Of a stretch of DNA of 64,000 nt, positions 20,180-42,236 are shown in pieces. The position numbers and the translations under genes are program-made. Numbering within the stretch: position 1 is the stretch's first letter; each line of letters begins with the position of its first letter. The DNA is taken from contig OY730476.1 of NCBI GenBank assembly GCA_963422735.1, positions 3,904,001 through 3,968,000 on the forward strand, written 5' to 3'. A model generated the notes under the pieces. It ran no database searches. It worked only from the letters and a program-made list of their open reading frames with translations, and had not been told where the DNA came from. Source of the DNA: Candidatus Latescibacterota bacterium. GTDB taxonomy: Bacteria > Latescibacterota > UBA2968 > UBA8231.

Positions 20180-21157
20180 TTAACTCGCGTACACGGCCTC
20201 GCGTAGCCCTTTGATATAGCCGATGGCGAACAGGCGCCCGATCGACGAATAGCCCGGGCTGTCGTTTCGGTCGCCCTCCATCGTCGGCACGTGGTCGGGG
20301 CGCAGGACGCCTTCAAAGCCAATGTCGCGGTAGGCTTCCATGCAGGCGCGCATGTCGGTCTTGCCTTCGTCGTGGAAGGTCTCGACGAATTTTTCGGGCG
20401 TGCCGCGCACATCGCGAAAGTGGACGAAAAAGATGCGGTCGCCAAAGTGGCGGATGACGCTAGGCAAGTCGTCGGTCATCAGGGTGAAGTTGCCTTGGCA
20501 CAGGCAGATGCCATTGGCGGGGCTGGGTACTAGGTCGATGAGCTTCTGGTAATTTTCGATGCTGCGCATGATGCGCCCCATACCGCGGAGGGGCGACAGC
20601 GGCGGGTCGTCCGGGTGCATGGCGAGTTTGACGCCAGCTTCCTCGGCGACTGGCACGACCTTTTCGAGAAAGTACTTCAGGTTGTCCCAAAGCTGCTCTT
20701 CGGTGACGACGCCGGCGTCGGTCAGGGGCGCGTTTTTCATCAGCTCGTTGTCAAAGCCGGTGACCATAGCACCGCCGCGCCCAGGCGCGGCCATTGAGGT
20801 GCGGGTCCAGTTGAGCACAGGCATCCACTCGGGACACCAGACCGGAATACCGATTTTGCCCATGTTGCGAATCAGCTCGCAGGCGTATTCGATCTCTTCG
20901 TCTCGGTCGGAAAGGCCGAGCTTGGCTTTGTTGAGCGGCGGACGGGCCTCGATGACATCGAGGGAGAAGCCGCCGTCGTTAAACGCGGTCTTCATCCGCA
21001 CGAGGTTGGTATAGCTCCAAGGCCGTTGCTCGGGGTGGATGTCGGCGGGGTCGCCGGGTGTGGAGAAACCGCCGACCACGTGATCAACTCCGCATTGCTT
21101 GACCATCCTCCACAGCGGCGTGGGGTGATCGGGCAGGACTTCGGCAATTTTGATCAT
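20180..21157 (-). CDS. uxuA: Mannonate dehydratase
   Basis: NWTRT, LWDNLKYFLEKVVPVAEEAGVKLAMHPDDPP, HFRDV, RPDHVP. Confidence 0.92.
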   Translation of the reverse strand: MIKIAEVLPDHPTPLWRMVKQCGVDHVVGGFSTPGDPADIHPEQRPWSYTNLVRMKTAFNDGGFSLDVIEARPPLNKAKLGLSDRDEEIEYACELIRNMGKIGIPVWCPEWMPVLNWTRTSMAAPGRGGAMVTGFDNELMKNAPLTDAGVVTEEQLWDNLKYFLEKVVPVAEEAGVKLAMHPDDPPLSPLRGMGRIMRSIENYQKLIDLVPSPANGICLCQGNFTLMTDDLPSVIRHFGDRIFFVHFRDVRGTPEKFVETFHDEGKTDMRACMEAYRDIGFEGVLRPDHVPTMEGDRNDSPGYSSIGRLFAIGYIKGLREAVYAS

Positions 21158-22127: not shown

Positions 22128-23924
22128 CTATCCCTGTACCGGCTGCAAATTGAGCAACACCAACAGCCACACCCGGTGCCAATACGCGCTGTTGATGTAA
22201 GGGCTATATTCCGAGGGCCAGTTGCGCCAGTAAGTTTGGTTGTGGGGAATGCGGTGATACCACTGCAAGATCGGGATCGACGGCAGTTCGGCGAGCCAGA
22301 TTTGCATGGCTTGGCGGTACAATTGCACTAGCTGCGGATCGCGCGGCGCGATTTCTGCCATTTGATCGACGATCTGGTCGAATTCCTCGTTCTGCCAGCG
22401 CCAGAAATGCTCGGCGGGTGTACCGGTTGGCTGCACGAAGCGGCTGTGGTAGAGCCGCAGCGTAAAGTACGGGTCGCGCACGCTGCCGCCGTGCCCAGTG
22501 ATAAAGGCGCGGGCCGTGCCGTGCGACATGCGGGTATAGGTGTCCGGGGTGTTGCGGAAGTCCGCGTCAAAACCCGCTTTCTCTAGCTGTGCCACTAGAA
22601 CCGGCGTGATGTCTTGGAAGATCGAGGAGATGTCGATGACCATCTTAAACGGCGTTCCATCCTTAGTCCAATAGCCGCCTTCGGGCCGCTTCCAGCCCAT
22701 ACTTTTCATCAACGCCGCGCTCTTGGCCAAATCAAAGACCCCGATTTCGTATTGCTCTAGCAGATCTTCGACCTCGCTGAAATAAGGTCGAAGCGCAGGA
22801 TAAGCGGGAAAGGGCAAGAGCGTCGAGGTGCCCGCTCCCTGCCAGCCGATCTCCACGAGCTGAGCGCGGTCAATGGCGTAGTTGATCGCGCGGCGCACAT
22901 CCACATCCGAGAAGGGGGCCTCTAGGTTGTTAAAGCCCAGCGAAATGGGCCAGAAATCCACATAGCCGTACGGCGGCTCCCGCCCGGTCCAAGTAGTAAC
23001 GCGGGGATTGCGGTCGAGTACGGTTAGGATGTTGGGTGGCCGGAGGTCTAGGCAGGTATCCATGTGGTTGGTAATTAGGTTCTGGACGCGCTTGGCTTCC
23101 TCCATGTAAGGCAGGTAGATGATGCGCTCGACTTTGGGCAGGGATTGGAAGCCGATGGCGGCGGCCCACCAATCCGGGCGCAAGTCCCAGATGCGCTGCT
23201 GGGGGGTTGATAGCGCCAGCTTGTAAGGCCCGGAAAACACGGGCCATCCTTTTTGCGGATCGAAGTGTTCAAAGGTGTCTGGCGACTGCCCTTCCCACAC
23301 GTGCTTGGGCACAATCGGCACCCCATTGCCGAAGTTGTGGGCGAAATACGAAAAGACAAAGCGCGGATTGGGCGCGGTCAGCGCGATGCGCGCCGTCAGG
23401 CTATCAACGGCCACGGCCTCTTGGACCCAGTTTTTCATGTCGGTCGAATAGGATAACAGAGGCGCGTTGTCCTTGAGCATGTTGATCGTAAAAACCAAGT
23501 CGTGAGCCGTCCACGGCTGCCCGTCGCTCCACTTGACTCTTGGGCGAATGGCGATCTCCACCTCGGTATAGGCGTCGTTGAAGCGGTGCCCCGTGGCAAT
23601 CCAGGGAATCAGCTTGCCCTCGAAGGCATTGTAAAAGTACAGCGGCTCGAAAACGAAGTTGTACCCAGTGCGCGAGGTGGTTTCCGGCAGATAGGGGTTG
23701 AACGAATTGTAGTCTTGGATCTGCCCGGCGCATGTGCCGCTTTCGGCGCAATCCACGATCAAGGTCCGGTTCCGTGGGACCTCTATAAGCGCCGAGCCGT
23801 CCGCTTGGCGTTCCTCGGCGTCTGCGCGCTGGCCGGCCGCTTCCGATGGCTCTTGGTCGGAGGGGCTATCGCCGCAGCCGCTGAGCAGCCACGCGCTGAG
23901 CAATGTGCAAACGCTGCGTTTCAT
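22128..23924 (-). CDS. ABC transporter substrate-binding lipoprotein, family 5
   Basis: LSGC lipobox, VKWSDGQPWTAHD, VRRAINYAIDR. Confidence 0.92.
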   Translation of the reverse strand: MKRSVCTLLSAWLLSGCGDSPSDQEPSEAAGQRADAEERQADGSALIEVPRNRTLIVDCAESGTCAGQIQDYNSFNPYLPETTSRTGYNFVFEPLYFYNAFEGKLIPWIATGHRFNDAYTEVEIAIRPRVKWSDGQPWTAHDLVFTINMLKDNAPLLSYSTDMKNWVQEAVAVDSLTARIALTAPNPRFVFSYFAHNFGNGVPIVPKHVWEGQSPDTFEHFDPQKGWPVFSGPYKLALSTPQQRIWDLRPDWWAAAIGFQSLPKVERIIYLPYMEEAKRVQNLITNHMDTCLDLRPPNILTVLDRNPRVTTWTGREPPYGYVDFWPISLGFNNLEAPFSDVDVRRAINYAIDRAQLVEIGWQGAGTSTLLPFPAYPALRPYFSEVEDLLEQYEIGVFDLAKSAALMKSMGWKRPEGGYWTKDGTPFKMVIDISSIFQDITPVLVAQLEKAGFDADFRNTPDTYTRMSHGTARAFITGHGGSVRDPYFTLRLYHSRFVQPTGTPAEHFWRWQNEEFDQIVDQMAEIAPRDPQLVQLYRQAMQIWLAELPSIPILQWYHRIPHNQTYWRNWPSEYSPYINSAYWHRVWLLVLLNLQPVQG

Positions 23925-23993
23925 ATTAGACCTCGCATCGGTTTAGGGGGGACACACCAGCCGCGCCAATTAAGCGCGAGCAAACCGTCTCAT

Positions 23994-25721
23994 TTAACCT
24001 CGCGTTGGTTGCAGGTTCAACAACACCAAAAGCCACGTTCGGTGCCAGTAAGCTGTGTTGATATACGGATTGTCCGCCGATGGCCAGTTGCGCCAGTAGG
24101 TTTGGTTGTGTGGCAAGCGGTGGTAAAATTGCAGCAAGGGTACGGCTGGCAACTCGCGCAGCCAAATCGCCAACGCCTCTCTGAACAGGCCCACCAAGCG
24201 CGGGTCGTCGGGTGAGGTTTGTCCCATCTGATCGACGAGTGCGTCATAGTCGGGGTTTTCCCAGCGCCAGAAGGTCGGCGTCGCCGTGCCCGTCGGTTGG
24301 GCAAAGCGACTGTGGTAGAGCCGCAGCGTAAAATATGGGTCGCGCACCGAGCCACCGTTACCAAATAGATAGGTCTTGGCCGCGCCCGTGGTCATCCGCG
24401 TGTAGTTGTCCGAGGTCATCCGCATGTTGGCTGCAAAGCCGGCCCGCTGCAACTGCTCGACTAGGATCGGCGCGATGTCTTGGAAGGTCTGGCTGATGTC
24501 GAGCAACATCCTAGCCTGTGCTCCATCCCGCGTCCAGATGCCCTCGGCGTCCCGCTGCCACCCCGAATCCTGCATCAGGGCCGCGCTGCGGGCCGGATCG
24601 AACAGCCCCACCGGATACTGCGCCAGCAGGCCTTGGACTTGGGCCGTGTAACGCCTGAGCCGCGGGAAGTCGGGAAATGGCAACGGGGTTGGTCGTCCCG
24701 CCCCCTGCCAGCCAACCTCCACCAGCTGATCGCGGTTGATGGCGTGGTTTACGGCCCAGCGGAAGGCCGGCTCGTCGTAGGGCGGCTCTTGGGCATTGAA
24801 ACCCAGCGAAATGGGCCACCAGTCCAGATAGCCATAGGGCGGCTCTTGGCCACTCCAAGTTGTCACCTTGGGATTTTGGTCTAGAATCGTGCGGATGTTG
24901 GGCGGTAGCATGTCGGCGCACAGGTCCATGGCATTGGTGGCAAGGTTCTGGACCTGTTTGGCCTCCTCCATATAGGGTAAGTAAATCAGCCGCTCGACTT
25001 GCGGCGGCTGACGGAAGCCGATCTTGGCGCCCCACCAGCCTTCGCGCCGGTCCCATATCCGCTGTTCCGGCACGGAGTACACCAAGCGGTACGGCCCGCT
25101 TACTACGGGCCAGCCCTGCGCCAGATCGAAGTTGGCGAAGGTCTTTGGGTCTTGGCCCTCCCAGATGTGCCGAGGCACAATCGGTACGCCATTGTCGAAG
25201 TTGTGGGTGAAATACGTGAAGACGAAGCGCGGATTGGGAGCTGTCAACGCAATGTGCGCCGTCAGGCTGTCGCTGACTACGGCCTTTTTTACCCAAGTCT
25301 GCATATCGACCGCAAAAGTCAGTTCCGGCGCGTTGTCCTTGAGCATGTTGATCGTAAAAACCACGTCGTGCGCCGTCCACGGCTGCCCATCGCTCCACTC
25401 GACCCCGGGCCGAATCGCGATGGTGACCTCAGTATAATCTGCGTTGTACTCGTACCCAGTGGCGATCCAAGGAATGATCTCGTCGCGATAGGCGTTGTAA
25501 AAATAGAGCGGCTCGTAGAGGAAGTTATACCCCGTGCGCGAGACCTTGCCGGGCAGGTAGGGGTTAAAGGCGTCGTAGTCTTGGAACTGGCCGCTGCACG
25601 TGCCTTGATCGACGCAGTCGGTGATTAAGGTGCGCTCGCGCGGCACGTATTGCAGGTGACCCTCGTCGCTACAAGCGGCGCAGACCAAAGCTAGGATCAG
25701 CGAGAAAGCGGGGTGCGTCAA
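23994..25721 (-). CDS. ABC transporter substrate-binding lipoprotein, family 5 (tandem paralog)
   Basis: Same motifs as its neighbour; TTG start behind AAGGAG; CAAC lipobox. Confidence 0.9.
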   Translation of the reverse strand: MTHPAFSLILALVCAACSDEGHLQYVPRERTLITDCVDQGTCSGQFQDYDAFNPYLPGKVSRTGYNFLYEPLYFYNAYRDEIIPWIATGYEYNADYTEVTIAIRPGVEWSDGQPWTAHDVVFTINMLKDNAPELTFAVDMQTWVKKAVVSDSLTAHIALTAPNPRFVFTYFTHNFDNGVPIVPRHIWEGQDPKTFANFDLAQGWPVVSGPYRLVYSVPEQRIWDRREGWWGAKIGFRQPPQVERLIYLPYMEEAKQVQNLATNAMDLCADMLPPNIRTILDQNPKVTTWSGQEPPYGYLDWWPISLGFNAQEPPYDEPAFRWAVNHAINRDQLVEVGWQGAGRPTPLPFPDFPRLRRYTAQVQGLLAQYPVGLFDPARSAALMQDSGWQRDAEGIWTRDGAQARMLLDISQTFQDIAPILVEQLQRAGFAANMRMTSDNYTRMTTGAAKTYLFGNGGSVRDPYFTLRLYHSRFAQPTGTATPTFWRWENPDYDALVDQMGQTSPDDPRLVGLFREALAIWLRELPAVPLLQFYHRLPHNQTYWRNWPSADNPYINTAYWHRTWLLVLLNLQPTRG

Positions 25722-25786
25722 GAGCTTCTCCTTTTTGCGGTGGCTGCCAAAACGTATCAACGCACATTGGGATGGTCAACGCCCGG

Positions 25787-29160: not shown

Positions 29161-29357
29161 TAACTAACGTTACGCAGTGGTTTGTCGCGGACGAACCAGT
29201 CCATGCGGGCGGTCCCAACCGGTGGCCCCCGCTGGATGTCACGCCTAAAAGCCTGCGCCCGCGCAAGCGGGCTTCACCGCGCCTTTAGGCGTGACATCCA
29301 GTAGGGGGAAGTGGGACAAAACCGCGTAGGGTGCGGCAAACTGCGTAGCATCAGTTA
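29161..29357. mobile_element. MITE-like element with terminal inverted repeats and an internal 18 bp inverted repeat
   Basis: TAACTAACGTTACGCAGT...ACTGCGTAGCATCAGTTA termini; CTGGATGTCACGCCTAAA...TTTAGGCGTGACATCCAG at 29232-29301. Confidence 0.7.
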
Positions 29358-29399: not shown

Positions 29400-31019
29400 A
29401 TGTACGACCTGTTAATCCGCAACGCCCAGCTTCTCGACGGCAGCGGCCAGCCGGCTTTTAGCGGCGACATCGCCGTTGAGCAGGGCCGCATCGTGGCCAT
29501 CGGCGACCTTGCTGCGGCTACTGCCCGGCACACCATCAACGCCGAAGGCCGCATTGCCTGCCCCGGCTTTATCGACATCCACACGCATTCGGACCTGACC
29601 ATTGCCCTCGACGGCCGCGCGCTCAGCTCCCTCGCGCAGGGCATTACGACCCAAGTCATGGGCAACTGCGGCGTCTCGGCCGCGCCCACCCGCGACTACG
29701 AGCCGTACTACGGCCCACTCGACCCGGCGATGACCCGTGGCTTGGAATGCGATTGGACCCATTTTGGCGATTATTTCCAGCGGCTTGAGGCCAATGGATT
29801 GGGCACGAACGCCGCGACTTTGGTCGGCCACGGCAATGTGCGCGTTGCCGCCATGGGTTACGACGACCGCCCGCCGACTGCGGCCGAGATGGAGCAGATG
29901 AAGGTGCTCGTCGCCCGTGCGATGGAAGACGGTGCGATGGGACTTTCGTCGGGCTTGGCCTACGCGCCCGGCCCGTATGCGGCGTTGGAAGAACTGGTCG
30001 AGTTGGGGCAGGTCGTCTCTGAGTACGGCGGCATCTACACCTCGCACATCCGCAACCAGACCGAGTCGATTGCCCAAGCTGTCGGCGAGGTCATTGCCGT
30101 CGGCGAGCAAGCCGCGGTTGCGGCCCACGTCTCGCACATGCAGCCCGGTGCCCCGATGATAGGCGCGACTAGCGACTTACTCGCTACGATTGACCAGAAA
30201 CGCCGCGCGGGCTGCGACATTAGCTGCGACGCCATTCCCTATACGGTCGGCAGCACCACTCTCAAGTCGCTGTTGCCTCCTTGGGCCTTGGCCGGCGGCG
30301 ACGAGGCCCTGCTGAAGAGGCTCCAAGACCCGGAGACCCGCGCCAAGATCGAGCAGGACACCAGGCAGTACGGAGCTGAGAGCGGTGGCAGCCGCAAGCG
30401 CAACTTGGCGCGGAATGGGCAATGGGACAAGATCTGGTTGGGCAGTGCCGAGCGAAACGCCGCCCTAGTCGGCCTGAGCTTTGCCGAGATTGGTCGGCGG
30501 CGCGGCCAAGACCCCCACGACGCGGTCTGCGACATTCTCGTCGAAGAGCGCGCGCGGCCGTGGATGCTGGCCGAGGATGTGTCTGAGGAGGACTTCCTCA
30601 ACATCGCCCGCCATCCCACCGGCGGCGTCATCTCCGATGGTTTCTCGCTGGTGCCCGAAGGAACTTTGGCCGAGGGCAAGCACCATCCTCGATCTTATGG
30701 GGCCTTCCCCTACTTCCTGCGCCGCTTCGTCCGCGAGCAAGACGCACTGCACTGGCACGAGGCTATCCACAAGCTCACCGGCCACCCCGCCGCCCGCTTC
30801 CGCTTGGGTGCGCGGGGACTCTTGCGCGAAGGCTATTGGGCCGATCTCGTGGTCTTTGACCCCGAAGCCATCGGCGAGTGTGCCGACTTTGCCAACCCGT
30901 ACTGCTACCCGCAGGGCATCGACTGCGTAATTGTCAATGGACGGATCGCTGTTGAACAAGGAGAAATAGCCGACAGCCGCGCCGGACAGATCGTCCGGGC
31001 CGCGCCGGCTTCGACCTAA
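29400..31019 (+). CDS. N-acyl-D-amino-acid deacylase (D-aminoacylase)
   Basis: PGFIDIHTHSD, GNCG, SHIRN, HPRSYGAFP, ADLVVFDP. Confidence 0.92.
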   Translation: MYDLLIRNAQLLDGSGQPAFSGDIAVEQGRIVAIGDLAAATARHTINAEGRIACPGFIDIHTHSDLTIALDGRALSSLAQGITTQVMGNCGVSAAPTRDYEPYYGPLDPAMTRGLECDWTHFGDYFQRLEANGLGTNAATLVGHGNVRVAAMGYDDRPPTAAEMEQMKVLVARAMEDGAMGLSSGLAYAPGPYAALEELVELGQVVSEYGGIYTSHIRNQTESIAQAVGEVIAVGEQAAVAAHVSHMQPGAPMIGATSDLLATIDQKRRAGCDISCDAIPYTVGSTTLKSLLPPWALAGGDEALLKRLQDPETRAKIEQDTRQYGAESGGSRKRNLARNGQWDKIWLGSAERNAALVGLSFAEIGRRRGQDPHDAVCDILVEERARPWMLAEDVSEEDFLNIARHPTGGVISDGFSLVPEGTLAEGKHHPRSYGAFPYFLRRFVREQDALHWHEAIHKLTGHPAARFRLGARGLLREGYWADLVVFDPEAIGECADFANPYCYPQGIDCVIVNGRIAVEQGEIADSRAGQIVRAAPAST

Positions 31020-31061
31020 GCACTTAGCTGAAGGGCGGTTGCTGCCCCTTAGTGCTCAATG

Positions 31062-31096
31062 AAGCCCCGTCCCTCTTGTTTGAGGGCGGGGTTTTT
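31062..31096 (+). terminator. Intrinsic terminator
   Basis: GCCCCGTCCCTC-ttgttt-GAGGGCGGGGT followed by a T run. Confidence 0.75.
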
Positions 31097-31138
31097 AAGA
31101 TGTGCTGTATGTACGCAAAATACGAAATATGCCGATAT

Positions 31139-31167
31139 TTGACAAAGAGTGTTCGATAATCTAAACT
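31139..31167 (+). promoter_or_regulatory. Sigma-70 promoter
   Basis: TTGACA-17 nt-TAAACT upstream of the HTH-IrrE gene. Confidence 0.7.
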
Positions 31168-31202
31168 ATTTGTCGTCACCTATCTACTTAGGAAGGTGCT
31201 CC

Positions 31203-32420
31203 ATGGCCATTACCCTTGCAGAAATCGGGCGACGATTGCGCGTGGCACGGGAAAGTCGGCAACTCACGCAGGAGGTCGCCGGTGAGGCACTCGGCCTACG
31301 ACGCTCGGCGATCAGCCTCATGGAATCCGGCCAGCGGCAGGTCTCCACGCTCGAACTGACCCGGCTTGCCGAGTTGTACGGTCGGCCAGTCGAATGGTTC
31401 GTCAACCCCAACAGCCCAGTTGAACGAGAAGACCCGGTCGTCGCGCTCTTTCGCGCCGAGCCGGGCCTGCAAGGCGAGGTCGTCCAAAAGCAGGCTCAGC
31501 GTTGTATGCGCTTGCTCCGAGAAGGAGCGTCGCTGCGGCGGCTGACGGGTGCCAGAGTTGCTGTCTCCCTACCGCGTTACGAACTGCCGCCTCCGCGCTC
31601 TGTGGGACAGGCGATTGACCAAGGCCAGCTTGTGGCTGAGCAAGAGCGGCGTCGTCTCGATTTGGGCAATGCACCCGTCAAAGTGCCTGAGACCTTGGCT
31701 CACCAGAATATCTGGACGGCTGCTTTGCCGTTGCCCGATGAAATATCGGGTCTCTTTCTGAGCAGCCCCGACTTTGGCATGGCGATTTTGGCCAATCTCG
31801 CTCAAGCCCCGGTGCGGCGGCGGTTTTCGTTCGCCCACGAACACGGCCACGCGCTTATGGACCGCGATGAGCTAGCCACTGTTACAAGCACCCACAACGC
31901 CCAGACGCGCACCGAACAGCGGGCCAATGCCTTTGCCGCTGCTTTCCTCATGCCGGAGGAAGGGGTACGAGATTTTCTGCACAACTTGGGCAAAGGAAGG
32001 AGCACTCGCCGGGTGGAAGCTGCGATGGATGCGGTCACCGAAGAAGGAATCCAAGGTCAGTTGCGCCGCCCGGCGCGGTCCCAGAACGTAACCTATGCAG
32101 ATGTGGCACTTATGGCTTGGCACTTTGAGGTAAACTATGCAGCGGCGGTGTGGCGGCTGCGCGGCTTGAATCTCGTCAGCCAAGAACATGCCCAGACGCT
32201 TCTCGGGCAGACTGAAGAGGCCAAGTGCTATCTCCGCGCTGTATCGGATGTCGAGGATTCCGCAGACGGCGCCCATTGGGAGCACGAGTTGAATTGGCAG
32301 ATTCTATCGCTGGCTTTGGAGGCGCGGTGGCGCGGGGAGATTTCGCAGGGTCGTCTGTTGGAAGTGGGGCAGCTGTTGGGCATTGACGACGAGACGCTTC
32401 TCGACTTAGCTGAATGCTGA
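31203..32420 (+). CDS. XRE HTH plus ImmA/IrrE family metallopeptidase
   Basis: N-terminal HTH (IGRRLRVARESRQLTQE...ESGQR), RRFSFAHEHGH, EQRANAFAAAFLMP. Confidence 0.92.
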   Translation: MAITLAEIGRRLRVARESRQLTQEVAGEALGLRRSAISLMESGQRQVSTLELTRLAELYGRPVEWFVNPNSPVEREDPVVALFRAEPGLQGEVVQKQAQRCMRLLREGASLRRLTGARVAVSLPRYELPPPRSVGQAIDQGQLVAEQERRRLDLGNAPVKVPETLAHQNIWTAALPLPDEISGLFLSSPDFGMAILANLAQAPVRRRFSFAHEHGHALMDRDELATVTSTHNAQTRTEQRANAFAAAFLMPEEGVRDFLHNLGKGRSTRRVEAAMDAVTEEGIQGQLRRPARSQNVTYADVALMAWHFEVNYAAAVWRLRGLNLVSQEHAQTLLGQTEEAKCYLRAVSDVEDSADGAHWEHELNWQILSLALEARWRGEISQGRLLEVGQLLGIDDETLLDLAEC

Positions 32421-32483
32421 ATTGGCTTCGACGACTCGATTGAGCTCAGCCGAAACGCAAGTGGCCTTCCTTGGATTCTGTAA

Positions 32484-32996
32484 ATGCAGCAGAAAGATCC
32501 AACGCCGATTGTTATTGATGCTTCGGTCCTGCTGAATTTCGTGAAAATTGGTCGTGTTGAGTTGCTTAGTCATCTCGGCCCAGCGGTCGTGTTGCCCGAC
32601 CAAGTGCTCGATGAAATAAGGCGTCCAGAATAAAAGAAGGCGGTCGAAGATGCTGTGGCAGCGGGCATACTTGACTTACAAAGCGTTGACGGCCTAGCGG
32701 AAGTTGCTCTATTCGCCAAACTTCAAGCAGACGGCCGGCTTGGTGCAGGCGAGTGCGATGTCCTCGCCGTTGCACTCATGCAGGGTTGGGTCGCCGGGCT
32801 TCAGGACCGCAGGGCGCGAGTTGAAGGGCAACGCCGGCGTAGAGACTTGGTAATCTATCAGACGGAGGACTTGGTGCTGAAGTTGATCGAGAATGAAACC
32901 TTGACCGTTGAAGAAGCTGACGGGTTTCTCTCTGAGTGGGCGGCGAATCACCAGAAGGAGAGTTTAAACAATAGAAAGATAACAAGTTGGCTATAA
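32484..32996 (+). pseudogene. PIN domain (DUF3368-like) toxin with a nonsense codon
   Basis: IVIDASVLLNF...VLDEIRRPE*KKAV...LGAGECDVLAVA...DRRAR; in-frame TAA at 32631. Confidence 0.8.
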
Positions 32997-33059
32997 AGAC
33001 TATAGTTCGTTTCGGGCTGAACAGGATAGACTTGCCGAATATTGTGGCTGCTCCACCGA

Positions 33060-33664
33060 TGCTCAATACACGCGGCATGTCCATCGCCGCGCTGATGCGT
33101 TGCAAGTTCCTCCTCGCCAAGAAAATCGGAAACAAGATCGCCGCCATTCGCCAAGAGGAACGAAGCAGCGTCTATCAGCAGTACCTCTTGGTGCCCGAAG
33201 CCAACACAGCGGTCTCTTTCGACATGGCTTTCGCGTTTACGGGCAACATGTACTGGGATCAAAAGCACTATCGCGGGCGCTGGAAACCGGGCAAGCACTT
33301 CTTAGGCCCGGATCGCGTTCCCGCCTTTGACGGCGCGGAAATGTGATGCGCTCGGGTCATTGATAGTCTGGCGGCCGTGCAGTACTGGATTCGCAATGTA
33401 GCGCGCCATCCCAACTCGTTTTGGCTGCCCACCGCAACGGACAAATTCTACCCGGACTTTGTCGCCTTGCTAAACGACGGTCGTCTCCTCGTTGTCGAAT
33501 ACAAGGGCGCACATCTCGCCGAAGGGACTGATACCAACGAAAAGCGGACTATTGGTGCCCTTTGGGAGCGAGAGAGCAAAGGCATGGGCTTCTTCATCAT
33601 CGCGGAGAAAATGGTCCATGGGAAGGACGTGTGGCAGCAATTAGAAGAGAAAATCGGAATTTGA
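33060..33664 (+). pseudogene. Type III restriction (Res) subunit C-terminal nuclease fragment
   Basis: VQYWIRNV...FYPDFVALLNDGRLLVVEYKG; no helicase part, frameshift near 33343. Confidence 0.75.
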
Positions 33665-33754
33665 AATATGTTTCCGGCGGACGATTTGAAGTTTGCGAGA
33701 GCGAGACGCCCACGCTCTCAGAGGCGTTGATATCTCAAGCAGTTTGGTCCTTTT

Positions 33755-33830
33755 CTGGATGTCATGCCTAAAAGCCTGCGCCCGTGAAAACGGGTGGCGC
33801 GGTGAAGCCCGCCTACGCGGGAATGACAGC
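33755..33830. repeat. Copy of the internal palindromic module of the MITE-like family
   Basis: CTGGATGTCATGCCTAAAAGCCTGCGCCCG nearly identical to 29232-29261. Confidence 0.75.
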
Positions 33831-33944
33831 GCGGGCCGTCGTTCAAGATCAACCGAAAGCAAAATGAGTTTTGAAAACGCTTCTTAGGAGGGATGTTCAC
33901 CGCTTCACCCTCTTCACTGCTGTACCTCGTTTTCGGATGCGTAG

Positions 33945-35222
33945 ATGAGCTATGCCCAGCTAACCCGCTTCATGTTGCCCCTAGTGGTGACGGCGCTGGT
34001 GCAAGAGCTTAGTGGCCAGTTCCTCAACGGCGGCATGGCGCGCATGCCGCGGGCAGTCGAAACGCTGGCTGCCTTCGGCTTGGCCTTTGGCTTGGCTGTC
34101 TTCCTCGCCGGCACCTTATCCCAGGTGCGGCAGCTCGGCTTGGTCCTCGTCGAGCACACCCAAGGCTACCGAGTCTGCTCCCGCTTTGTGCTCGCCGCCG
34201 GGCTGCTGTTGGCCGGCATCTTGGCCAGCTTGGCGCTGACGCCTTTGGGGACTTGGATTATCAACGACCTGCACGGGGTTGATCCCGCACTCGGCGACGC
34301 GGTGCGCTTGGCCCTGCTGTGGCTCGTCCCCTACCCCGTCCTGCAGGGGATGACGCGCTTTTACAGCGGCGAACTCATCCGCGTTCGCCGCACCGACGTC
34401 CCCGCCTATGCCACCACCACTGGGATCGTCCTCAGCATCCTCGCGGTCTTTGCCCTGCTGCCGCTTGGCTTTGTCCGCCAGACCCCCATCTTACTGCCGG
34501 TCTTAGCCACGTACACAGGTGCCCTTACCGAGCTTTGCGTGGTCGCGTGGGGCCGCTGGCGCTTAGTGCGCCGGCCCGCACAAGCCACTGCACCGGCCCT
34601 GACCTACTTCTACGTCCTGCGCTTTTTCTGGCCCTTGGCGCTAATCATGGCCGTGCAGGCTGGTACCCGGCCGCTGATCAACATGTTCGTCGCCCGCAGC
34701 ATCGACGGCACCCAAGCGCTGGCCGTGCTGACCATCGTCTATGCGCTCGGCCACATCCCCTATGGCTGGCTCAACGAACTGCGCAACCTGCCGACGGCCT
34801 TCCGCCAAGAAGGGGACTTGGCCAAGATTCGCCGCTTCTGCTTGGGCTGTTGTCTGTTTTCCTGTGCGTGGATGGCGGCCCTGTTTTGGACGCCGGCTGT
34901 CAATTACATACTCGGCACTTGGATCGGCATCGGCTCCGAGTTGATCGCCGACTGCAAGACGCCCCTGCTCCTCTTTACGGGCTTTCCTTTTGTCGTCAGC
35001 CTGCGCAGCTACTTCCACGGCATTGGTCTACTCCAGCACCGCACCCAAGCTATGGCACCGAGTGCCCCGTCGCGGGTAGCGACCGTCTTGCTGATGCTGG
35101 GTCTGCTTTCCAACTTCGATCTCCACGGCGCAACCCAAGCCGTGGGTGCCTTAATCAGCGGCCACACCGTAGAGGCCCTAGTCGTCTGGTGGAGCATCGG
35201 GCGCGGTCGGCGAGCCTCTTGA
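33945..35222 (+). CDS. ANKH-like (MATE-related) multi-pass membrane transporter
   Basis: About 10-12 hydrophobic segments; [50 protein letters not shown], LHGAT motifs. Confidence 0.82.
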   Translation: [425 protein letters not shown]

Positions 35223-35268
35223 CGCAGCTAGGGCTGTATCCAACGTTCTCTACGTGAATTTTGCGGGA

Positions 35269-35293
35269 GGGCAACCACAAGGATTGCCCCTAC
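35269..35293 (-). repeat. REP-like palindrome
   Basis: GTAG-GGGCAATCCTTGTGGTTGCCC: GTAG tetranucleotide followed by a hairpin. Confidence 0.6.
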
Positions 35294-35342
35294 AAAACGG
35301 TCTTGACCCAACAACAAACCCCGGATAAAGGACGCCATACCC

Positions 35343-36983
35343 ATGAACGGCAACCAAGCCATTGCTCACATCCTCAAGGCCGAAGGCATCGCGTGGCTGT
35401 CGGCTTTTCCCGCCCAGTCGCTGATTGACGAGGCGGCACGCGCTGGGATCCGGCCCGTTATCTGCCGCCAAGAGCGGACGGGCGTCAACATGGCCGACGG
35501 CTTCAGCCGCACGACCAATGGCCGCCCCTTTGGCGTCTTCACCATGCAGACCGGGCCGGGGGCTGAAAACGCGCTCGGCGGCGTGGCCCAGGCCTACGCC
35601 GATTCCATCCCGGTGTTGCTCCTGCCCGGCGGCGTGTTCACGGCCCGCACGCAAGTGCCGCCCAACTTCGACGCGGTGCCCAACTACCGAGGCATCACCA
35701 AATGGGCTGCCAACATCAACCAAGTCGAACGCATTCCCGAGCTGATGCGCCGCGCCTTCAGCCAGCTCGTCCACGGTCGCCTCGGGCCGGTGCTCTTGGA
35801 AATCCCCAGCGACTTGGCCACCGCTGAGCTCCCAGACGACGCCCTCGACTATCAACCGGTCAAAGCCTACAAGTCGGGGGCCGACCCAGACGCGGTCCGC
35901 GATTTGGTTGCCGCGCTCGTCAAGGCCGAATGCCCGGTCGTCAACGCGGGGCACGGCGTACTGTGGGCCGAAGCCACGGACCTGCTCGTAGCCCTCGCCG
36001 AGCTGCTCAACGCGCCCGTTATGACCACCTTGGCTGGCAAGAGCGCGTTTCCCGAAAACCATCCACTCGCGCTGGGCACCGGCGGTCACACTGGCACGCT
36101 GATGGTCGATCGCTTCCTGCAAAAGACCGATTTCGTCTTGGGCGTGGGCACCAGCTTTACCATCTCGGCCTTCAATGCCCCCATGCCCGACCGCGCCGTC
36201 TTGGCGCAGGTGACCAACTGCGCGGAGGATCTCAACAAAGACTACCGAATCGACTTGGGGGTCATCGGCGATGCGCGGATCGTGCTGGAACAGATCATCG
36301 AGGAAGTCCGTCGGCAGCTTGGGGCCGACGGGCGCGCCGACGGGCGCGGGACTGCGGCCGAGATTGCGGCCATCCGCGCTGAATTCAACGCCGCGTGGGC
36401 TCCGAGATTCCGCTCGGACGAGGTGCCGATAAACCCCTACCGGGTCTTCGCCGAGCTCGCCCGCGCCGTGGATGTGCCCAACACCATCATCACCCACGAC
36501 TCGGGCTATCCCCGCGATCAGCTCGTGCCGTTCTGGCGGCCTCAAATCCCCAGAGGGTACATCGGCTGGGGCAAATCGACCCAACTCGGCTACGGCTTGG
36601 GTTTGGCATTAGGGGCCAAGTTAGCCGCGCCGGACAAGCAGATCATCAACATCATGGGCGACGCGGCTTTTGGCATGGCGGGTCTCGACATCGAGACCGC
36701 GGTGCGCGCAGAAATTCCCATTCTCACGGTGGTGCTCAACAACGGCGTGATGACCCACTACGACCAGCACATGCCCTACGCTAGCGAGCACTGGCAGAGC
36801 AACCAGCTCGGCGGCCACTACGCACAGGTGGCCGAGGCCCTCGGTGCCCACGCCGAGCGCGTCGAATCGCCCCCGGACTTGGCACCGGCCATCCAACGTG
36901 CGCTCGTGGCCAACCGCGAAGGCCGCGCCGCTCTAGTGGAAGTAATGACTAAGGCGGAAGAAAACATCGCCAAATTTTGGTAA
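35343..36983 (+). CDS. Thiamine pyrophosphate-dependent enzyme (acetolactate synthase-like)
   Basis: RQERTGVNMADG, GPGAEN, GDAAFGM...NN TPP motif. Confidence 0.92.
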   Translation: MNGNQAIAHILKAEGIAWLSAFPAQSLIDEAARAGIRPVICRQERTGVNMADGFSRTTNGRPFGVFTMQTGPGAENALGGVAQAYADSIPVLLLPGGVFTARTQVPPNFDAVPNYRGITKWAANINQVERIPELMRRAFSQLVHGRLGPVLLEIPSDLATAELPDDALDYQPVKAYKSGADPDAVRDLVAALVKAECPVVNAGHGVLWAEATDLLVALAELLNAPVMTTLAGKSAFPENHPLALGTGGHTGTLMVDRFLQKTDFVLGVGTSFTISAFNAPMPDRAVLAQVTNCAEDLNKDYRIDLGVIGDARIVLEQIIEEVRRQLGADGRADGRGTAAEIAAIRAEFNAAWAPRFRSDEVPINPYRVFAELARAVDVPNTIITHDSGYPRDQLVPFWRPQIPRGYIGWGKSTQLGYGLGLALGAKLAAPDKQIINIMGDAAFGMAGLDIETAVRAEIPILTVVLNNGVMTHYDQHMPYASEHWQSNQLGGHYAQVAEALGAHAERVESPPDLAPAIQRALVANREGRAALVEVMTKAEENIAKFW

Positions 36984-36993
36984 GGAGGAGAAA

Positions 36994-38076
36994 ATGAACC
37001 CATACAAAGCCGTTCTCATCGGCTGCAGCCGCATGGGTGCTTTTATCGACAACGAGGTTCCTGCCGATATGCGCCCGTACTCCCACGCCGCCGGGTACGA
37101 GGCTTGTGAGCGTACGGACCTTATCGCCTGCTCGGACCTGCGCCCCGAGGTGATGGGAAGGGTCGGCAAGCGCTACGGCATCCCCGCGGACAAGCAATAC
37201 ACCGACCATCGAGAGATGCTCGTGCGCGAAAAGCCGGACATCGTCAGCGTCGCCACCCAGCCCGAGCACCGCGCCGAAATCGTCATCGCAGCGACCGAAG
37301 CAGGTGCCCGCGCCATCTACGCGGAAAAGGCGTTCTCGGCCTCGCTAGAGGAAGCCGATCGCATGGTCGCAGCCTGCCAGCGCCACAACGTCGTGCTCAA
37401 CATGGGCACCAATCGCCGCTTCCACCCCGGCTACGACCAAATGAAGGCCGTCATCGACTCCGGGAGAATTGGTGCGTTGCAAACCCTCATCATCCACCAG
37501 ACCAGTGCGCTCTTCAACGGTGCCAGCCACAGCTTTGACCTGCTCCAGCGTCTCAACTCCGACGCCCCTGCCGCTTGGGTGCAAGCGCATTTGCCCAATG
37601 GCGACGAGATCATCGACGGCGATGTCCTGCGCGAGGACCCGGTCGGGCACGGCATCATCCAGTTCGCCAACGGGGTCACCGCGTACGCGCTCAATTCGGG
37701 TCGGGGATTGGAAGTGGAGGCCGTCTGCGAAAAGGGCGTGGTGACGGCACTGGGCACTGATAAAGAGTGGCAGTTGCGGGCACCGGTAGCACGCGATCAC
37801 CGGGGCCGCGATACATTGGGTTTGGTGGAATTTCCCTCTTTCGAGCACCGGGCTTCGACGCTCTGTCTAATCGAGGATCTGGTCCGCGCACTCGATACGG
37901 GCGAGCCTCCGCGCGGCGGTGCCGAGCTAGCACGGGCCAATACCGAGCTAATTTTCGCATTTGTCGAGTCGCACCAACGCGGCGGTGCTCGCGTAGAGTT
38001 GCCGCTTGCCGGGAGCAAGTATCGGCTGGCGCGGGATCGCGCGCCGCGGCAGCCTAAGTACGAGGCGGGCGTTTGA
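36994..38076 (+). CDS. Gfo/Idh/MocA family oxidoreductase
   Basis: LIGCSRMG, PDIVSVATQPEHR, AEKA, NRRF. Confidence 0.9.
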   Translation: MNPYKAVLIGCSRMGAFIDNEVPADMRPYSHAAGYEACERTDLIACSDLRPEVMGRVGKRYGIPADKQYTDHREMLVREKPDIVSVATQPEHRAEIVIAATEAGARAIYAEKAFSASLEEADRMVAACQRHNVVLNMGTNRRFHPGYDQMKAVIDSGRIGALQTLIIHQTSALFNGASHSFDLLQRLNSDAPAAWVQAHLPNGDEIIDGDVLREDPVGHGIIQFANGVTAYALNSGRGLEVEAVCEKGVVTALGTDKEWQLRAPVARDHRGRDTLGLVEFPSFEHRASTLCLIEDLVRALDTGEPPRGGAELARANTELIFAFVESHQRGGARVELPLAGSKYRLARDRAPRQPKYEAGV

Positions 38077-38222: not shown

Positions 38223-38712
38223 TCATTGCTCTAACTTTACGGTCAATGACCGGGTGCGTTGAGCAATGGTCTTGGATTCGTCGAGTTCGCCATCTCCAAC
38301 GTTCAACTCCTGAAATCGCCGCATAGGGGGCAAGACTCTGCGCTCCAGCGAACCGATGGGCCGATTGTAACTCTCAATAGTCTGATCGATACGCCACCTC
38401 AAATTGTTGAGGTGGCGAAAGAATGGTTCCATGCGCTGGTAGAGCTCTTTGCTCGTAGCTGCTATTTGACGTGCATTTTTAGACACCGCTTGTTGTTGCC
38501 ATTCATAAGCAACAGCCTTCAAGAGTGCCAAAAGCGTCACAGGTGTCGCTATCAGTACCTTACTTTTCAAGGCATCGTCTAACAAATTTGGCTCTTCTAT
38601 AAATGCCGCCTCAACACTGGCTTCGACTGGCACAAACATGACGACAAACTCCGGAGCCTTTTCGAATTGCGCCCAGTAGGCTTTTTGTTCCAATTCGCGC
38701 ACCCGATTATGC
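38223..38712 (-). pseudogene. rmuC: RmuC C-terminal fragment
   Basis: KAYWAQF..APEFVVMFVP.E, ATPVTLLALLKAVAY.WQQ, YN..IGSLERRVLP. Confidence 0.82.
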
Positions 38713-38713
38713 A

Positions 38714-39515
38714 CTATGCGAGAACAGCGGCAGTAGTGCTGCGCCCAACGCCACCCTTGACCGAGAACAACGTGTAGCGCATCGGCGTCCTTTGCGGGTC
38801 TGAATCGCCGACTGTCCACCAATCGCGGCTGGTTACTAGACGATCGACCCAATACACGCCGGGAAGAATCTCTTGCGCCATGTCGTTGAGTGCTTTCAGC
38901 ATGGCGTCATCCACGAACAGAACGGCCTCTTCGGCAGGGTAGCCATGTTTGCCGAGCGTTTTGTGTAGGCCAGCGGCGAGGCGTTGCAGCGTACTATCCT
39001 CTTGAACTGCGTCCGACACCAATATACGCACCCTTCCGAACAAATCTCGCGCCAAGTAGATGGAAGTAGTCTCGTCGGGAATTGCCTCGCTTTTGAGCAT
39101 ATCGGTCACGCGCTGCTGCATGGCATCGAAGGAAACGAAGTAGCCATCCTGTTCTGCGCGTTGAACCATATAATAAACCGTACAAGCTGCTTTGCGATGC
39201 GGCTCCACGTCTGCTCTTTGGAAATGGCATCCACGGGCATAGCGGTTGTGATGCGACCAGTTATGGAACGGGTCGCCGTTCGGGATTTGACTCAGGTACT
39301 GCGATCCATTCCTACCGTTGACGAAGCTCTTGAAGATCAGCCACAGCTTCTTCACATGATTTTGGTGCTGTTCATCAGTCGGTTTTCCATCCGATTCGAC
39401 AGACATCCCAAGGGCCTTCATCACCGCCTTGCTGAACCCGTATAACTGATCGGCGTTTGCACAGCGACTCTGGTCGGAGAGTAGCTCCGCGTCTTGCCAG
39501 TGGCGTCGGCAGGAT
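38714..39515 (-). pseudogene. HEPN-like small protein fused to the N-terminus of a KGGVGR-motif ParA-like ATPase, truncated
   Basis: RHWQDAELL...NADQLYGF...PFHNWSHHNRYA then LARDLFGRVRI...FSVKGGVGRSTTAAVLA*. Confidence 0.68.
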
Positions 39516-40829: not shown

Positions 40830-42236
40830 TCAGCTAGGGGACCGCTGGGCGGCTTGTTCGATCAAAAGCCGATTCTGCTGGCTTTGCCGTACCTGCGCCT
40901 CTAAAGCGACCGGGTCCCACTCGGACAATAGCCGCTCTTGGAGGTCGGCTAAGGTGGCCGCGTAGGCTGGAAGGCCCGCTAGGTCGTCGAATTCGTTGGG
41001 GTCGGCCTCTACGTCGTATAGCTGGGGTGGATCCCCCAAGCTGTAGTGGAGCTTGTAGCGGCCGCGTCGCAACATGGCCGTTGGCCGCGCCACGCCGTGG
41101 GCTAGGTATTCGGAAAAGGCTTCGTCTTTCCAGTCTGCGCCTTGCCCTTGCAGCAATCCCAATAGACTATCGCCGTTCAGCGGTCCCGAGCTGGGTGCGC
41201 CGGCCACATCGACGATGGTCGCCACCATATCCACCAGCGACACTACTTCGCCGATGTGCCGACCGGCCGGGATCTGCCCGGGATAGACCATTTGCAGCGG
41301 CACCTTGGCGGACGCCTCGTACAGGCTCGACTTCCGCCACATACCGTGCTCGCCGTTCATTTCTCCGTGATCGCTGAAGTGCACGATGAGCGTGTTGTCG
41401 CGCTGCCCGGTTTCCTCTAGGGCAGCAAGCAGGCGGCCGATCTTTTCGTCTAGATAGGTAATCAGCCCGTAGTAGCCAGCGCGTGCGCGGCGCACTTGTT
41501 CTTCGGGGAAATCGCCCGCCCCGAACATCGCCCGCATCCGCTGGTGTACGGGGTGTTGGCTTTCGAGATGGCCGGGGGGAATCTCCGGCATGTCGATTTG
41601 CTCGAGGGGATAGAGATTGAAAAACCGCTCGGGCACCACGAGCGGAAAATGCGGCGCAATAAACGAGACATTCAGTGCCCAAGGCCGCTGCTTGCGGCCC
41701 GGGTCGCGCAGATAGGCCAGCGCTTGTTTCTCCACCAGATCATCGACTTCGATCTCTTGGGTCGTCCCCGGCCCGGCCTCGGCGACCCCACCCCAAGGTG
41801 CTTTGGCCGGTGGTGTGCCCTTGCTCCAGTCGGGTGTACCGCGTGGGACGCCATCTTTGGTCCACAGCTCGGCGTGCAAATCGCGCGCTAGCTGGGCGCG
41901 GAAGCCGTGCAATTGGTCCGGGCCGCAAAAGTGCTGTTTGCCCGAGAGCACCACATCGTAGCCAACGGCGCGCAGCCGATGGGCCCAAGTGACCGCATCC
42001 GACGGCAGGGGGCTGGCATTGTCAAAGGACCCGATCTGGCTGATGTAGCGGCCGGTCATAAATGACATCCGCGACGGTAGGCAGAGCGGAGAGTTGCAAT
42101 AGGCGTTGTCAAAGGTCGCGCCCTCGGCGGCCAATTGATCCATAAAGGGTGTCTGCACGAGCGGATGCCGGTAGGGGCCGCTGTACATGGGCGCGTGTTC
42201 GTCCGTCATAATGAGCAGTATGTTGGGGCGATTCAC
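40830..42236 (-). CDS. Sulfatase (choline-sulfatase-like)
   Basis: PNILLIMTDEH, CLPSRMSFMTG, GKQH, SDHG. Confidence 0.93.
   Translation of the reverse strand: MNRPNILLIMTDEHAPMYSGPYRHPLVQTPFMDQLAAEGATFDNAYCNSPLCLPSRMSFMTGRYISQIGSFDNASPLPSDAVTWAHRLRAVGYDVVLSGKQHFCGPDQLHGFRAQLARDLHAELWTKDGVPRGTPDWSKGTPPAKAPWGGVAEAGPGTTQEIEVDDLVEKQALAYLRDPGRKQRPWALNVSFIAPHFPLVVPERFFNLYPLEQIDMPEIPPGHLESQHPVHQRMRAMFGAGDFPEEQVRRARAGYYGLITYLDEKIGRLLAALEETGQRDNTLIVHFSDHGEMNGEHGMWRKSSLYEASAKVPLQMVYPGQIPAGRHIGEVVSLVDMVATIVDVAGAPSSGPLNGDSLLGLLQGQGADWKDEAFSEYLAHGVARPTAMLRRGRYKLHYSLGDPPQLYDVEADPNEFDDLAGLPAYAATLADLQERLLSEWDPVALEAQVRQSQQNRLLIEQAAQRSPS

Follow-up and report, generated by a model that had tools for sequence, protein, structure and literature searches.

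In humans, pyrophosphate and citrate outside the cell are under the control of ANKH, and mutations in this protein lead to craniometaphyseal dysplasia and chondrocalcinosis. A gene whose product resembles this protein along its length lies in a bacterial genome, on a stretch of 64,000 nucleotides (the window, throughout this text) taken from contig OY730476.1 of the Candidatus Latescibacterota bacterium assembly GCA_963422735.1, positions 3,904,001 to 3,968,000 of the forward strand. The locus raises the question of whether such a protein truly belongs to the ANKH family, what it might move across a bacterial membrane, and how its lineage stands to the animal proteins. Here we describe the gene and its 425-amino-acid (aa) product, which we regard as almost certainly a full-length bacterial member of the ANKH family (PF07260; SLC62; TC 2.A.66.9). 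Our overall reading, to which we assign a probability of roughly 0.6, is that the gene is intact and kept by selection, that it has passed by descent through a family of uncultured Latescibacterota that appear to be host-associated, and that its product is an ANKH-family secondary transporter of the inner membrane, working by alternating access as an exporter of organic or phosphorylated anions.

Family membership and predicted fold

The open reading frame (ORF) is intact from its ATG to its TAA. The TAG that is counted within the PF07260 match to the genome is the stop codon immediately before this ATG, the profile match beginning 3 nt upstream, so the gene is not broken. Further long frames that overlap the ANKH ORF (34319..35257 on the plus strand and 35250..36584 on the minus strand) are the expectation for a stretch of 64% G+C, and a scan for promoters and terminators around the gene gave one site resembling each, on the minus strand in both cases, a yield not above that from shuffled sequences. 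The 4.95-Mb contig (95% complete) holds a single ANKH match.

PF07260, 'Progressive ankylosis protein (ANKH)', is the sole Pfam-A family to match the protein at E<=10, with a score of 174.2 bits against a curated cut-off of 22 (E 5.8e-51) and with residues 2-294 placed on profile positions 9-311 of 344. It is likewise the only Pfam match in all 50 aligned homologues. The MatE family (PF01554) matched neither the 425-aa protein at E<=10 nor any of the 50 homologues at E<=0.01, no NCBIfam model matched the protein, and neither Pfam nor NCBIfam gave it a match to the MurJ/Wzx flippase families.

An AlphaFold2 model built from the 50-sequence alignment is confident (pLDDT 91.3, pTM 0.87), and places helices 1-6 at roughly residues 3-32, 37-68, 72-98, 114-146, 151-171 and 183-207 and, after a loop at 208-220, helices 7-12 at 221-250, 255-285, 291-314, 331-363, 373-388 and 395-424. 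The predicted architecture is the 12-helix, two-lobe (6+6) fold of the MOP (multidrug/oligosaccharidyl-lipid/polysaccharide) superfamily to which MATE proteins belong. In a Foldseek comparison with the PDB, the top matches were MOP-superfamily transporters only, with a probability of 1.00 to MATE, MurJ and Wzx proteins. A PDB search with the sequence itself returned no ANKH structure, its sole match being a chance antibody (E 0.09).

To place the protein among its relatives, an exhaustive phmmer search was run against 1.84 billion cluster representatives; of its 1175 matches at E<=1e-3, 576 reached E<=1e-10 and 67 reached E<=1e-30. Among all matches a sponge ANKH ranked 21st (E 1.5e-63) and a fish ANKH 23rd (E 8.8e-59); given these ranks and scores in a search of that size, the likeness to animal ANKH is far beyond chance. 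The animal references used below are ANKH proteins from this representative-sequence search, named through their cluster members, and the human sequence is not among them. They and the other eukaryotic entries named in the same way are P0145 (the calcareous sponge Sycon ciliatum, 'progressive ankylosis protein homolog B-like'), P0147 (a cluster of sturgeon, paddlefish and other fish ANKHB, 'progressive ankylosis protein homolog B'), P0150 (Branchiostoma), P0152 (a crinoid), P0157 (the choanoflagellate Hartaetosiga), P0158 (Lingula), P0159 (Saccoglossus), P0163 (Hydractinia), P0172 (a bryozoan) and P0148 (a EukProt transcript).

With BLASTP, the fish ANKHB-type protein P0147 is identical to the bacterial protein at 145 of 435 aligned positions (33%; 53% positives, E 6e-72), in a colinear alignment of bacterial residues 3-414 with fish residues 10-444, and the sponge protein P0145 at 151 of 433 (35%, E 5e-77). 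A preliminary description of the locus, made from the sequence alone, had called the gene at 33945-35222 a full-length bacterial homologue closely resembling vertebrate ANKH, citing five colinear blocks, and had proposed setting the ANKH profile against MatE as a check. The profile score and the colinear identity bear out the full-length homology, all five blocks (at residues 101, 228, 272, 314 and 393 of the bacterial protein) align with matching blocks of P0147, and of the two profiles PF07260 alone matches; the colinear likeness therefore stands, while its degree amounts to 33-35% identity only.

Residue conservation was compared between 19 bacterial and 23 eukaryotic rows of the alignment, and at 26 positions an identical residue is present in at least 85% of both sets. 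These include Q238, R242, P243 and N246 in helix 7, Y273 and W275 in helix 8, R354 in helix 10, T367, R377 in helix 11, and E410 in helix 12. Just under the threshold is R251, an arginine in 18 of 19 bacterial and 17 of 23 eukaryotic rows, and Q25, N28, H110 and N277 also fall slightly below it. The conserved charged residues are mostly arginines. A Q-x7-N-x4-R spacing can be read from the sequence in both helix 1 (Q20/N28/R33) and helix 7 (Q238/N246/R251), as expected from the internal repeat of the MOP fold.

The sites of human disease mutations, taken from the list in the available portion of a 2026 review (PMC13356900), were mapped through the P0147 alignment, the fish protein having the expected residues at the human numbers. 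Four of the mutated positions are identical in the bacterial protein (human L244, C331, F377 and G389, corresponding to L231, C302, F347 and G359), and two differ (S375, which is T345, and M48, which is T40). Of these mutations, L244S abolishes the release of both citrate and pyrophosphate (PPi) in cells, according to the text available from PMC7371198. The bacterial protein shares these residues, R251 and the four disease-mutated positions included, with animal and holozoan ANKH (SLC62A1; TC 2.A.66.9; PF07260), along with the family itself and colinearity over all 12 helices.

Maintenance and genomic setting

A scan of genome contigs found 40 ANKH loci, comprising 29 close ones (67-94% identity), titled Candidatus Latescibacterota with a few Gemmatimonadota metagenome-assembled genomes (MAGs), and 11 distant ones (46-53%), among which are a groundwater-titled Latescibacterota MAG, Gemmatimonadetes and Caldilineaceae. 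PF07260 is matched in 66 of the 168 Latescibacterota genomes covered. The window's genus has a match in 29 of 30 genomes and its family in 56 of 75; a second family has one in 9 of 31, whereas the remaining twelve families, with 61 genomes, have none, and neither do 14 control genomes. Pairwise ratios of nonsynonymous to synonymous substitution (dN/dS), determined for 11 of the 29 close loci, lie between 0.10 and 0.14 in all 11 comparisons, and the gene is under purifying selection. Because of this distribution across the genus and family and these low ratios, the ANKH gene is an old, maintained resident of this Latescibacterota lineage.

The preliminary description had raised the idea of a possible symbiont, and of this, host association is plausible: in seven public sequencing runs from four studies, filed under three coded organism labels, the window is present at half or more of the sampled words. 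Hi-C genomic libraries exist for one of the three labels. Runs in which the share is small (X13-X20) say nothing about habitat. Among the titles of related MAGs are isolate prefixes, some of which we take to come from sponge-microbiome studies, and the sponge-associated PAUC34f/SAUL lineage is presumably now placed within Latescibacterota; that either is connected with the present genome is our assumption as well. SAUL/PAUC34f bacteria are described as associates of sponges, corals and tunicates in the available part of PMC8546597.

Two metatranscriptome runs of one study (X19 and X20) contain contigs about 91% alike to the window over 33945-34414, and in X20 also over 34814-35021; these contigs are a relative's, and RNA libraries may contain DNA. 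A third, presumed RNA run (X10) covers just 33989-34088 of the gene, and the uncovered parts prove nothing. A relative's ANKH gene thus occurs in RNA libraries, and we claim nothing more on expression.

In close relatives the gene order is amidohydrolase, ANKH, thiamine-pyrophosphate (TPP) enzyme and Gfo/Idh/MocA-family oxidoreductase (Table 1), and of the 29 close loci, 22 keep the amidohydrolase, 26 the TPP enzyme and 27 the oxidoreductase. In 13 close relatives the amidohydrolase directly abuts the ANKH gene upstream. All five abutting junctions that were read (L002, L004, L014, L022 and L031) have an ATGA overlap between the TGA of the amidohydrolase and the ATG of ANKH, which suggests translational coupling.

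Table 1. Positions in the window of the ANKH gene, its flanking genes and the sequence inserted upstream of it
Feature	Coordinates	Strand	Basis or remarks
ANKH-family (PF07260; MOP-superfamily fold) transporter gene, 425 aa, 12 predicted transmembrane helices	33945..35222	+	ORF, Pfam, BLASTP, AlphaFold2, Foldseek, dN/dS
Amidohydrolase (Amidohydro_3; best NCBIfam PRK09061, below cut-off)	29400..31019	+	Pfam, NCBIfam, tblastn synteny
Insert of ~2.9 kb between amidohydrolase and ANKH genes, absent in 13 relatives	31020..33944	+	Synteny, junction sequences
XRE-HTH + M78 peptidase gene, RmrA-like in PADLOC	31149..32420		In insert
ORF matching type III restriction enzyme profile positions 687-768 of 898	32987..33346		In insert
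ORF matching type III restriction enzyme profile positions 801-894 of 898	33377..33664		In insert
Dispersed repeat, ~70 nt, hairpin-rich	33755..33828		In insert; further copy 29232-29283
TPP enzyme, NF004807/PRK06154 equivalog, 743.6 bits vs cut-off 607	35343..36983	+	
Gfo/Idh/MocA-family oxidoreductase	36994..38076	+	

This junction is a hot spot for insertions: differing inserts that reach right up to the ANKH start split it in the window and in at least eight relatives (L006, L007, L008, L010, L013, L016, L019 and L028). The window's insert, which leaves the ANKH ORF unaffected, lies in a region of lower G+C (0.549 for 32001-34000, against 0.641 for the ANKH gene region). Its two restriction-enzyme ORFs look like remnants of a decayed res gene, since between them they match the last 210 positions of the type III restriction enzyme profile. 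The repeat near the end of the insert has 14 matches in the genome; in run X6 it shows a contig depth about 5-fold higher, with many loose ends, and its further copy lies just upstream of the amidohydrolase gene.

None of the close loci's neighbours was found at the 11 distant loci, where the surroundings are mixed: an outer-membrane protein (OMP) barrel, an HpcH/HpaI aldolase, a protein of the dihydrodipicolinate synthase (DHDPS) family, a GDSL lipase, an esterase, a ceramidase-like protein, a GNAT protein and a zinc alcohol dehydrogenase (ADH). Gene context was considered as a clue to the substrate and set aside, since no neighbour is common to close and distant loci and the distant ones are heterogeneous, leaving no usable signal. 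The wider window is catabolic in character, with a sulfatase bearing an SGSH_C domain (40830-42236), a UxuA mannonate dehydratase (20180-21157) and two family-5 solute-binding proteins (22128-25760), all on the minus strand, and it likewise holds a short-chain dehydrogenase/reductase (SDR) and amidohydrolases. This context hints at organic-acid or carbohydrate catabolism without naming a substrate. Also in this region is an RmuC-family ORF at 38223-38852 on the minus strand (208 aa) that covers profile positions 145-287 of 291 only, and may be a truncated or mis-started rmuC.

Proposed transport role and its alternatives

As to what the protein carries, we tentatively favor an organic-anion exporter, by analogy with the animal family and at slightly less than even odds. 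In such a protein the N- and C-lobes would undergo alternating access and move a small organic or phosphorylated anion outward, the candidate cargoes being a di- or tricarboxylate such as citrate, or an anion of the nucleotide or pyrophosphate type. Recognition of the anion would fall to conserved arginines in helices 7, 10 and 11 (R242, R251, R354 and R377), with help from the Q-x7-N-x4-R motifs that helices 1 and 7 carry in pseudo-symmetric arrangement. Animal ANKH mediates the release of ATP or nucleoside triphosphates (NTPs) and of citrate, as shown for the human and mouse proteins in the available text of PMC7371198; ATP or citrate export by the bacterial protein would be an analogy only.

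Several observations weigh against this reading. A literature search turned up neither transport data for bacterial ANKH members nor any paper on them, though TCDB, supplements and the MOP-superfamily paper of Hvorup et al. (2003), all outside its reach, may describe bacterial Ank entries. Identity to animal ANKH is about one third, so the substrate may differ, and a cavity lined by the conserved arginines is inferred from helix numbers. The bacterial protein (425 aa, compared with about 480-530 aa in animals) is without the C-terminal tail of about 50 residues found in animal ANKH, the alignment stopping at fish residue 444 of 496, and its loops between helices 6 and 7 and between helices 8 and 9 are shorter than the longer loops of the animal proteins. 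Unlike animal ANKH, it is of bacterial origin and encoded among catabolic genes; with these neighbours and the amidohydrolase overlap, a role in uptake or exchange would agree no less well than citrate or ATP export. Finally, as the distant loci share no neighbours and are themselves heterogeneous in context, there is no consistent clue to the substrate.

The main rival follows from these neighbours. The protein might be a pathway transporter, importing or exchanging a compound, perhaps of N-acylated or sugar-acid type, that the adjacent amidohydrolase, TPP enzyme and Gfo/Idh/MocA oxidoreductase use or produce, instead of releasing citrate or ATP as ANKH does. The gene order conserved in the close loci, the abutting and overlapping junctions with the amidohydrolase, and the sulfatase, UxuA, solute-binding proteins and other catabolic enzymes of the wider region all speak for it, as do the aldolase-type genes (HpcH/HpaI and DHDPS family) directly upstream in some distant loci. 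However, the synteny is limited to close kin and could be plain descent, with none of the 11 distant loci sharing the neighbours, and where the junction has been split by inserts the ANKH gene is nonetheless kept. Characterised MOP-superfamily members, moreover, are exporters, flippases or antiporters. We consider this alternative unlikely, and it is the best placed of those weighed here.

Much less probable is a generic cation-coupled drug or metabolite efflux pump of the MATE type that merely scores with the ANKH profile. The best Foldseek E-value does belong to inward-facing PfMATE (6fhz; E 2.6e-8, TMq 0.68), with human MATE1, plant MATEs and many other MATE structures among the next matches, and 'MATE family efflux transporter' clusters of the ESM Atlas are among the nearest by features. 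With MATE transporters (PfMATE 6fhz, human MATE1 9r1f and NorM) the protein has in common the MOP-superfamily fold of 12 helices in two six-helix lobes, but its identity to the top structural matches, MATE structures included, is only 11-18%, and the profile results above assign it and its homologues to ANKH and not to MatE. MATE pumps have acidic cation-coupling sites, whereas the conserved charges here are mostly basic. The ANKH clade is also set apart from the other matches in the tree described below (support 99/95).

Slightly less probable still is a MurJ- or Wzx-like flippase for a lipid-linked glycan. It is to MurJ that the highest TM-scores are found (7wax, TMq 0.76; 6nc8, 0.72), WzxE is matched as well, and the highest TM-scores to the lipid-linked glycan flippases as a group are 0.71-0.76; these high values are likely due to an inward-facing state common to the model and the structures. 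MurJ has 14 helices and the present protein 12. The protein matches no flippase family and falls in the ANKH clade, and among the annotated neighbouring genes there are none for glycosyltransferases, polysaccharides or glycan synthesis.

Relationship to eukaryotic ANKH

A FastTree phylogeny of 111 full-length matches and a subsequent IQ-TREE analysis (LG+C20 PMSF, 65 rows by 441 columns, rooted on nine distant MOP-type matches) gave the same picture. The successive branches from the root are a Planctomycetes-containing clade (P0191), a clade of P0162, P0184 and P0193, and a 50-row ANKH clade (99/95), within which the long-branch EukProt row P0148 diverges first. The remainder divides into two sister groups. 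One, of 21 rows (95/87), contains the window protein and every named bacterial row, from Latescibacterota, Anaerolineae, Caldilineaceae and Gemmatimonadetes; the other, of 28 rows (96/90), contains 12 of the 13 named eukaryotic rows, which are animals, three choanoflagellates (including Monosiga and Salpingoeca) and a protist transcript from MMETSP. The bacterial clade is therefore sister to the eukaryote-bearing clade and does not lie inside it. The phylogeny that the preliminary description called for accordingly groups the protein with metazoan ANKH, sponge included, to the exclusion of other MOP-type matches.

Not borne out is the suggestion in that description that this lineage could mark the bacteria nearest to the animal family. 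By mean BLASTP bits to 14 rows of the metazoan clade, the window protein is 5th of the 21 bacterial rows; the four that score higher are two proteins from Anaerolineae, the representative P0125 and a second protein from Latescibacteria. The best tree that places its seven-row subclade, chosen after the tree was seen, next to the eukaryote side is 24.4 log-likelihood units worse and is rejected by the approximately unbiased (AU) test (p-AU 0.0175). Within the bacterial ANKH clade the window's own lineage does not stand out; among named prokaryotes, it is this clade taken whole that stands closest to animal ANKH. Recent capture of a eukaryote-like gene by a symbiont from its animal host, which the sponge protein's place as best-scoring named eukaryotic match and the apparent host association of the genome might bring to mind, is highly improbable and was rejected, as it is contradicted by the sister position of a bacterial clade that spans several phyla (the groundwater-titled MAG included) and by the AU test, while identity to the sponge protein is only 35%, the G+C of the gene region is near that of its neighbours, and the gene is widespread in its family.

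The composition of the eukaryote-bearing side bears on where eukaryotic ANKH came from. The group of P0176, P0198, P0205, P0185 and P0226 that adjoins the animals is probably eukaryotic, because next to the ANKH-family gene of one P0226-like metagenome locus lies a beta-propeller gene of the EIPR1 type. A metagenome scan found six short loci, all of them P0226-like (58-99.5%). On these marine contigs (L042-L047, G+C 0.36-0.49) are intron-free ANKH-family proteins of 617-700 aa, and in L044 (366-2450) the ANKH-family gene adjoins an EIPR1-type WD40 gene; the sequences are probably from small marine eukaryotes and branch nearer to animal ANKH than the choanoflagellates do. P0168, P0192 and P0180 are three basal rows of the eukaryote-side clade; should these and the P0162 clade be bacterial, they, in place of the window's clade, would be nearest to eukaryotic ANKH. 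Four other matches, P0151 (1018 aa), P0165 (1136 aa), P0171 (848 aa) and P0243 (945 aa), have an ANKH-like domain in their C-terminal part (at 672-1104 in P0165, for example) and are fused forms.

Since the outgroups are bacterial, a bacterial origin of the eukaryotic ANKH gene is the simpler reading, which is not the same as proven. The named members found in sponge, cnidarian, lophophorate, echinoderm, hemichordate, amphioxus and choanoflagellate, together with a bacterial sister clade, mean that ANKH is not a vertebrate invention. According to the portion available of a 2024 paper on ANKH evolution (PMC11417794), Ensembl yielded no Ankh from invertebrates.

The bacterial branch itself has already been catalogued. 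ANKH is listed as SLC62A1 (TC 2.A.66.9), with a MATE fold, in the available part of PMC9333335, and the text available from PMC3924187 does not mention the Ank family. The PF07260 label is precomputed for all 120 homologues among the matches listed, one Joint Genome Institute (JGI) record among the bacterial homologues is named 'progressive an...', and the ESM Atlas has clusters of bacterial 'ANKH domain-containing proteins'. Compared with the other bacterial PF07260 proteins, entered as 'hypothetical protein' in MAGs of Anaerolineae, Latescibacterota, Gemmatimonadota and Caldilineaceae, the window protein is of the same clade and length and 46-94% identical; nothing of substance differs, and it is particular only in the insert at its amidohydrolase junction. 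It is an ordinary member of a catalogued, experimentally untouched bacterial branch of ANKH.

A bolder proposal, which we think improbable, is that the bacterial ANKH clade was the prokaryotic source of eukaryotic ANKH, by one ancient transfer before the split of animals and choanoflagellates, and that its members, the one in this symbiont among them, would already export citrate, NTPs or both. If this were true, host-associated Latescibacterota would release anions relevant to mineralisation and phosphorus into the host matrix, and the window protein would be a direct and tractable model for human ANKH.

The ANKH literature, as far as the available texts of PMC7371198 and PMC13356900 go, concerns export from cells and not transport by the purified protein. 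This compact 425-aa homologue, which has no C-terminal tail, retains the conserved arginines along with four positions mutated in disease and is modelled with confidence by AlphaFold2, could be used in reconstitution and structural work to settle the cargo of ANKH-type proteins. For the bacterium, the gene represents one more uncharacterised transporter within a catabolic neighbourhood; its wider value lies in giving human ANKH a model that is tractable and in adding to what is known of the bacterial clade sister to eukaryotic ANKH.

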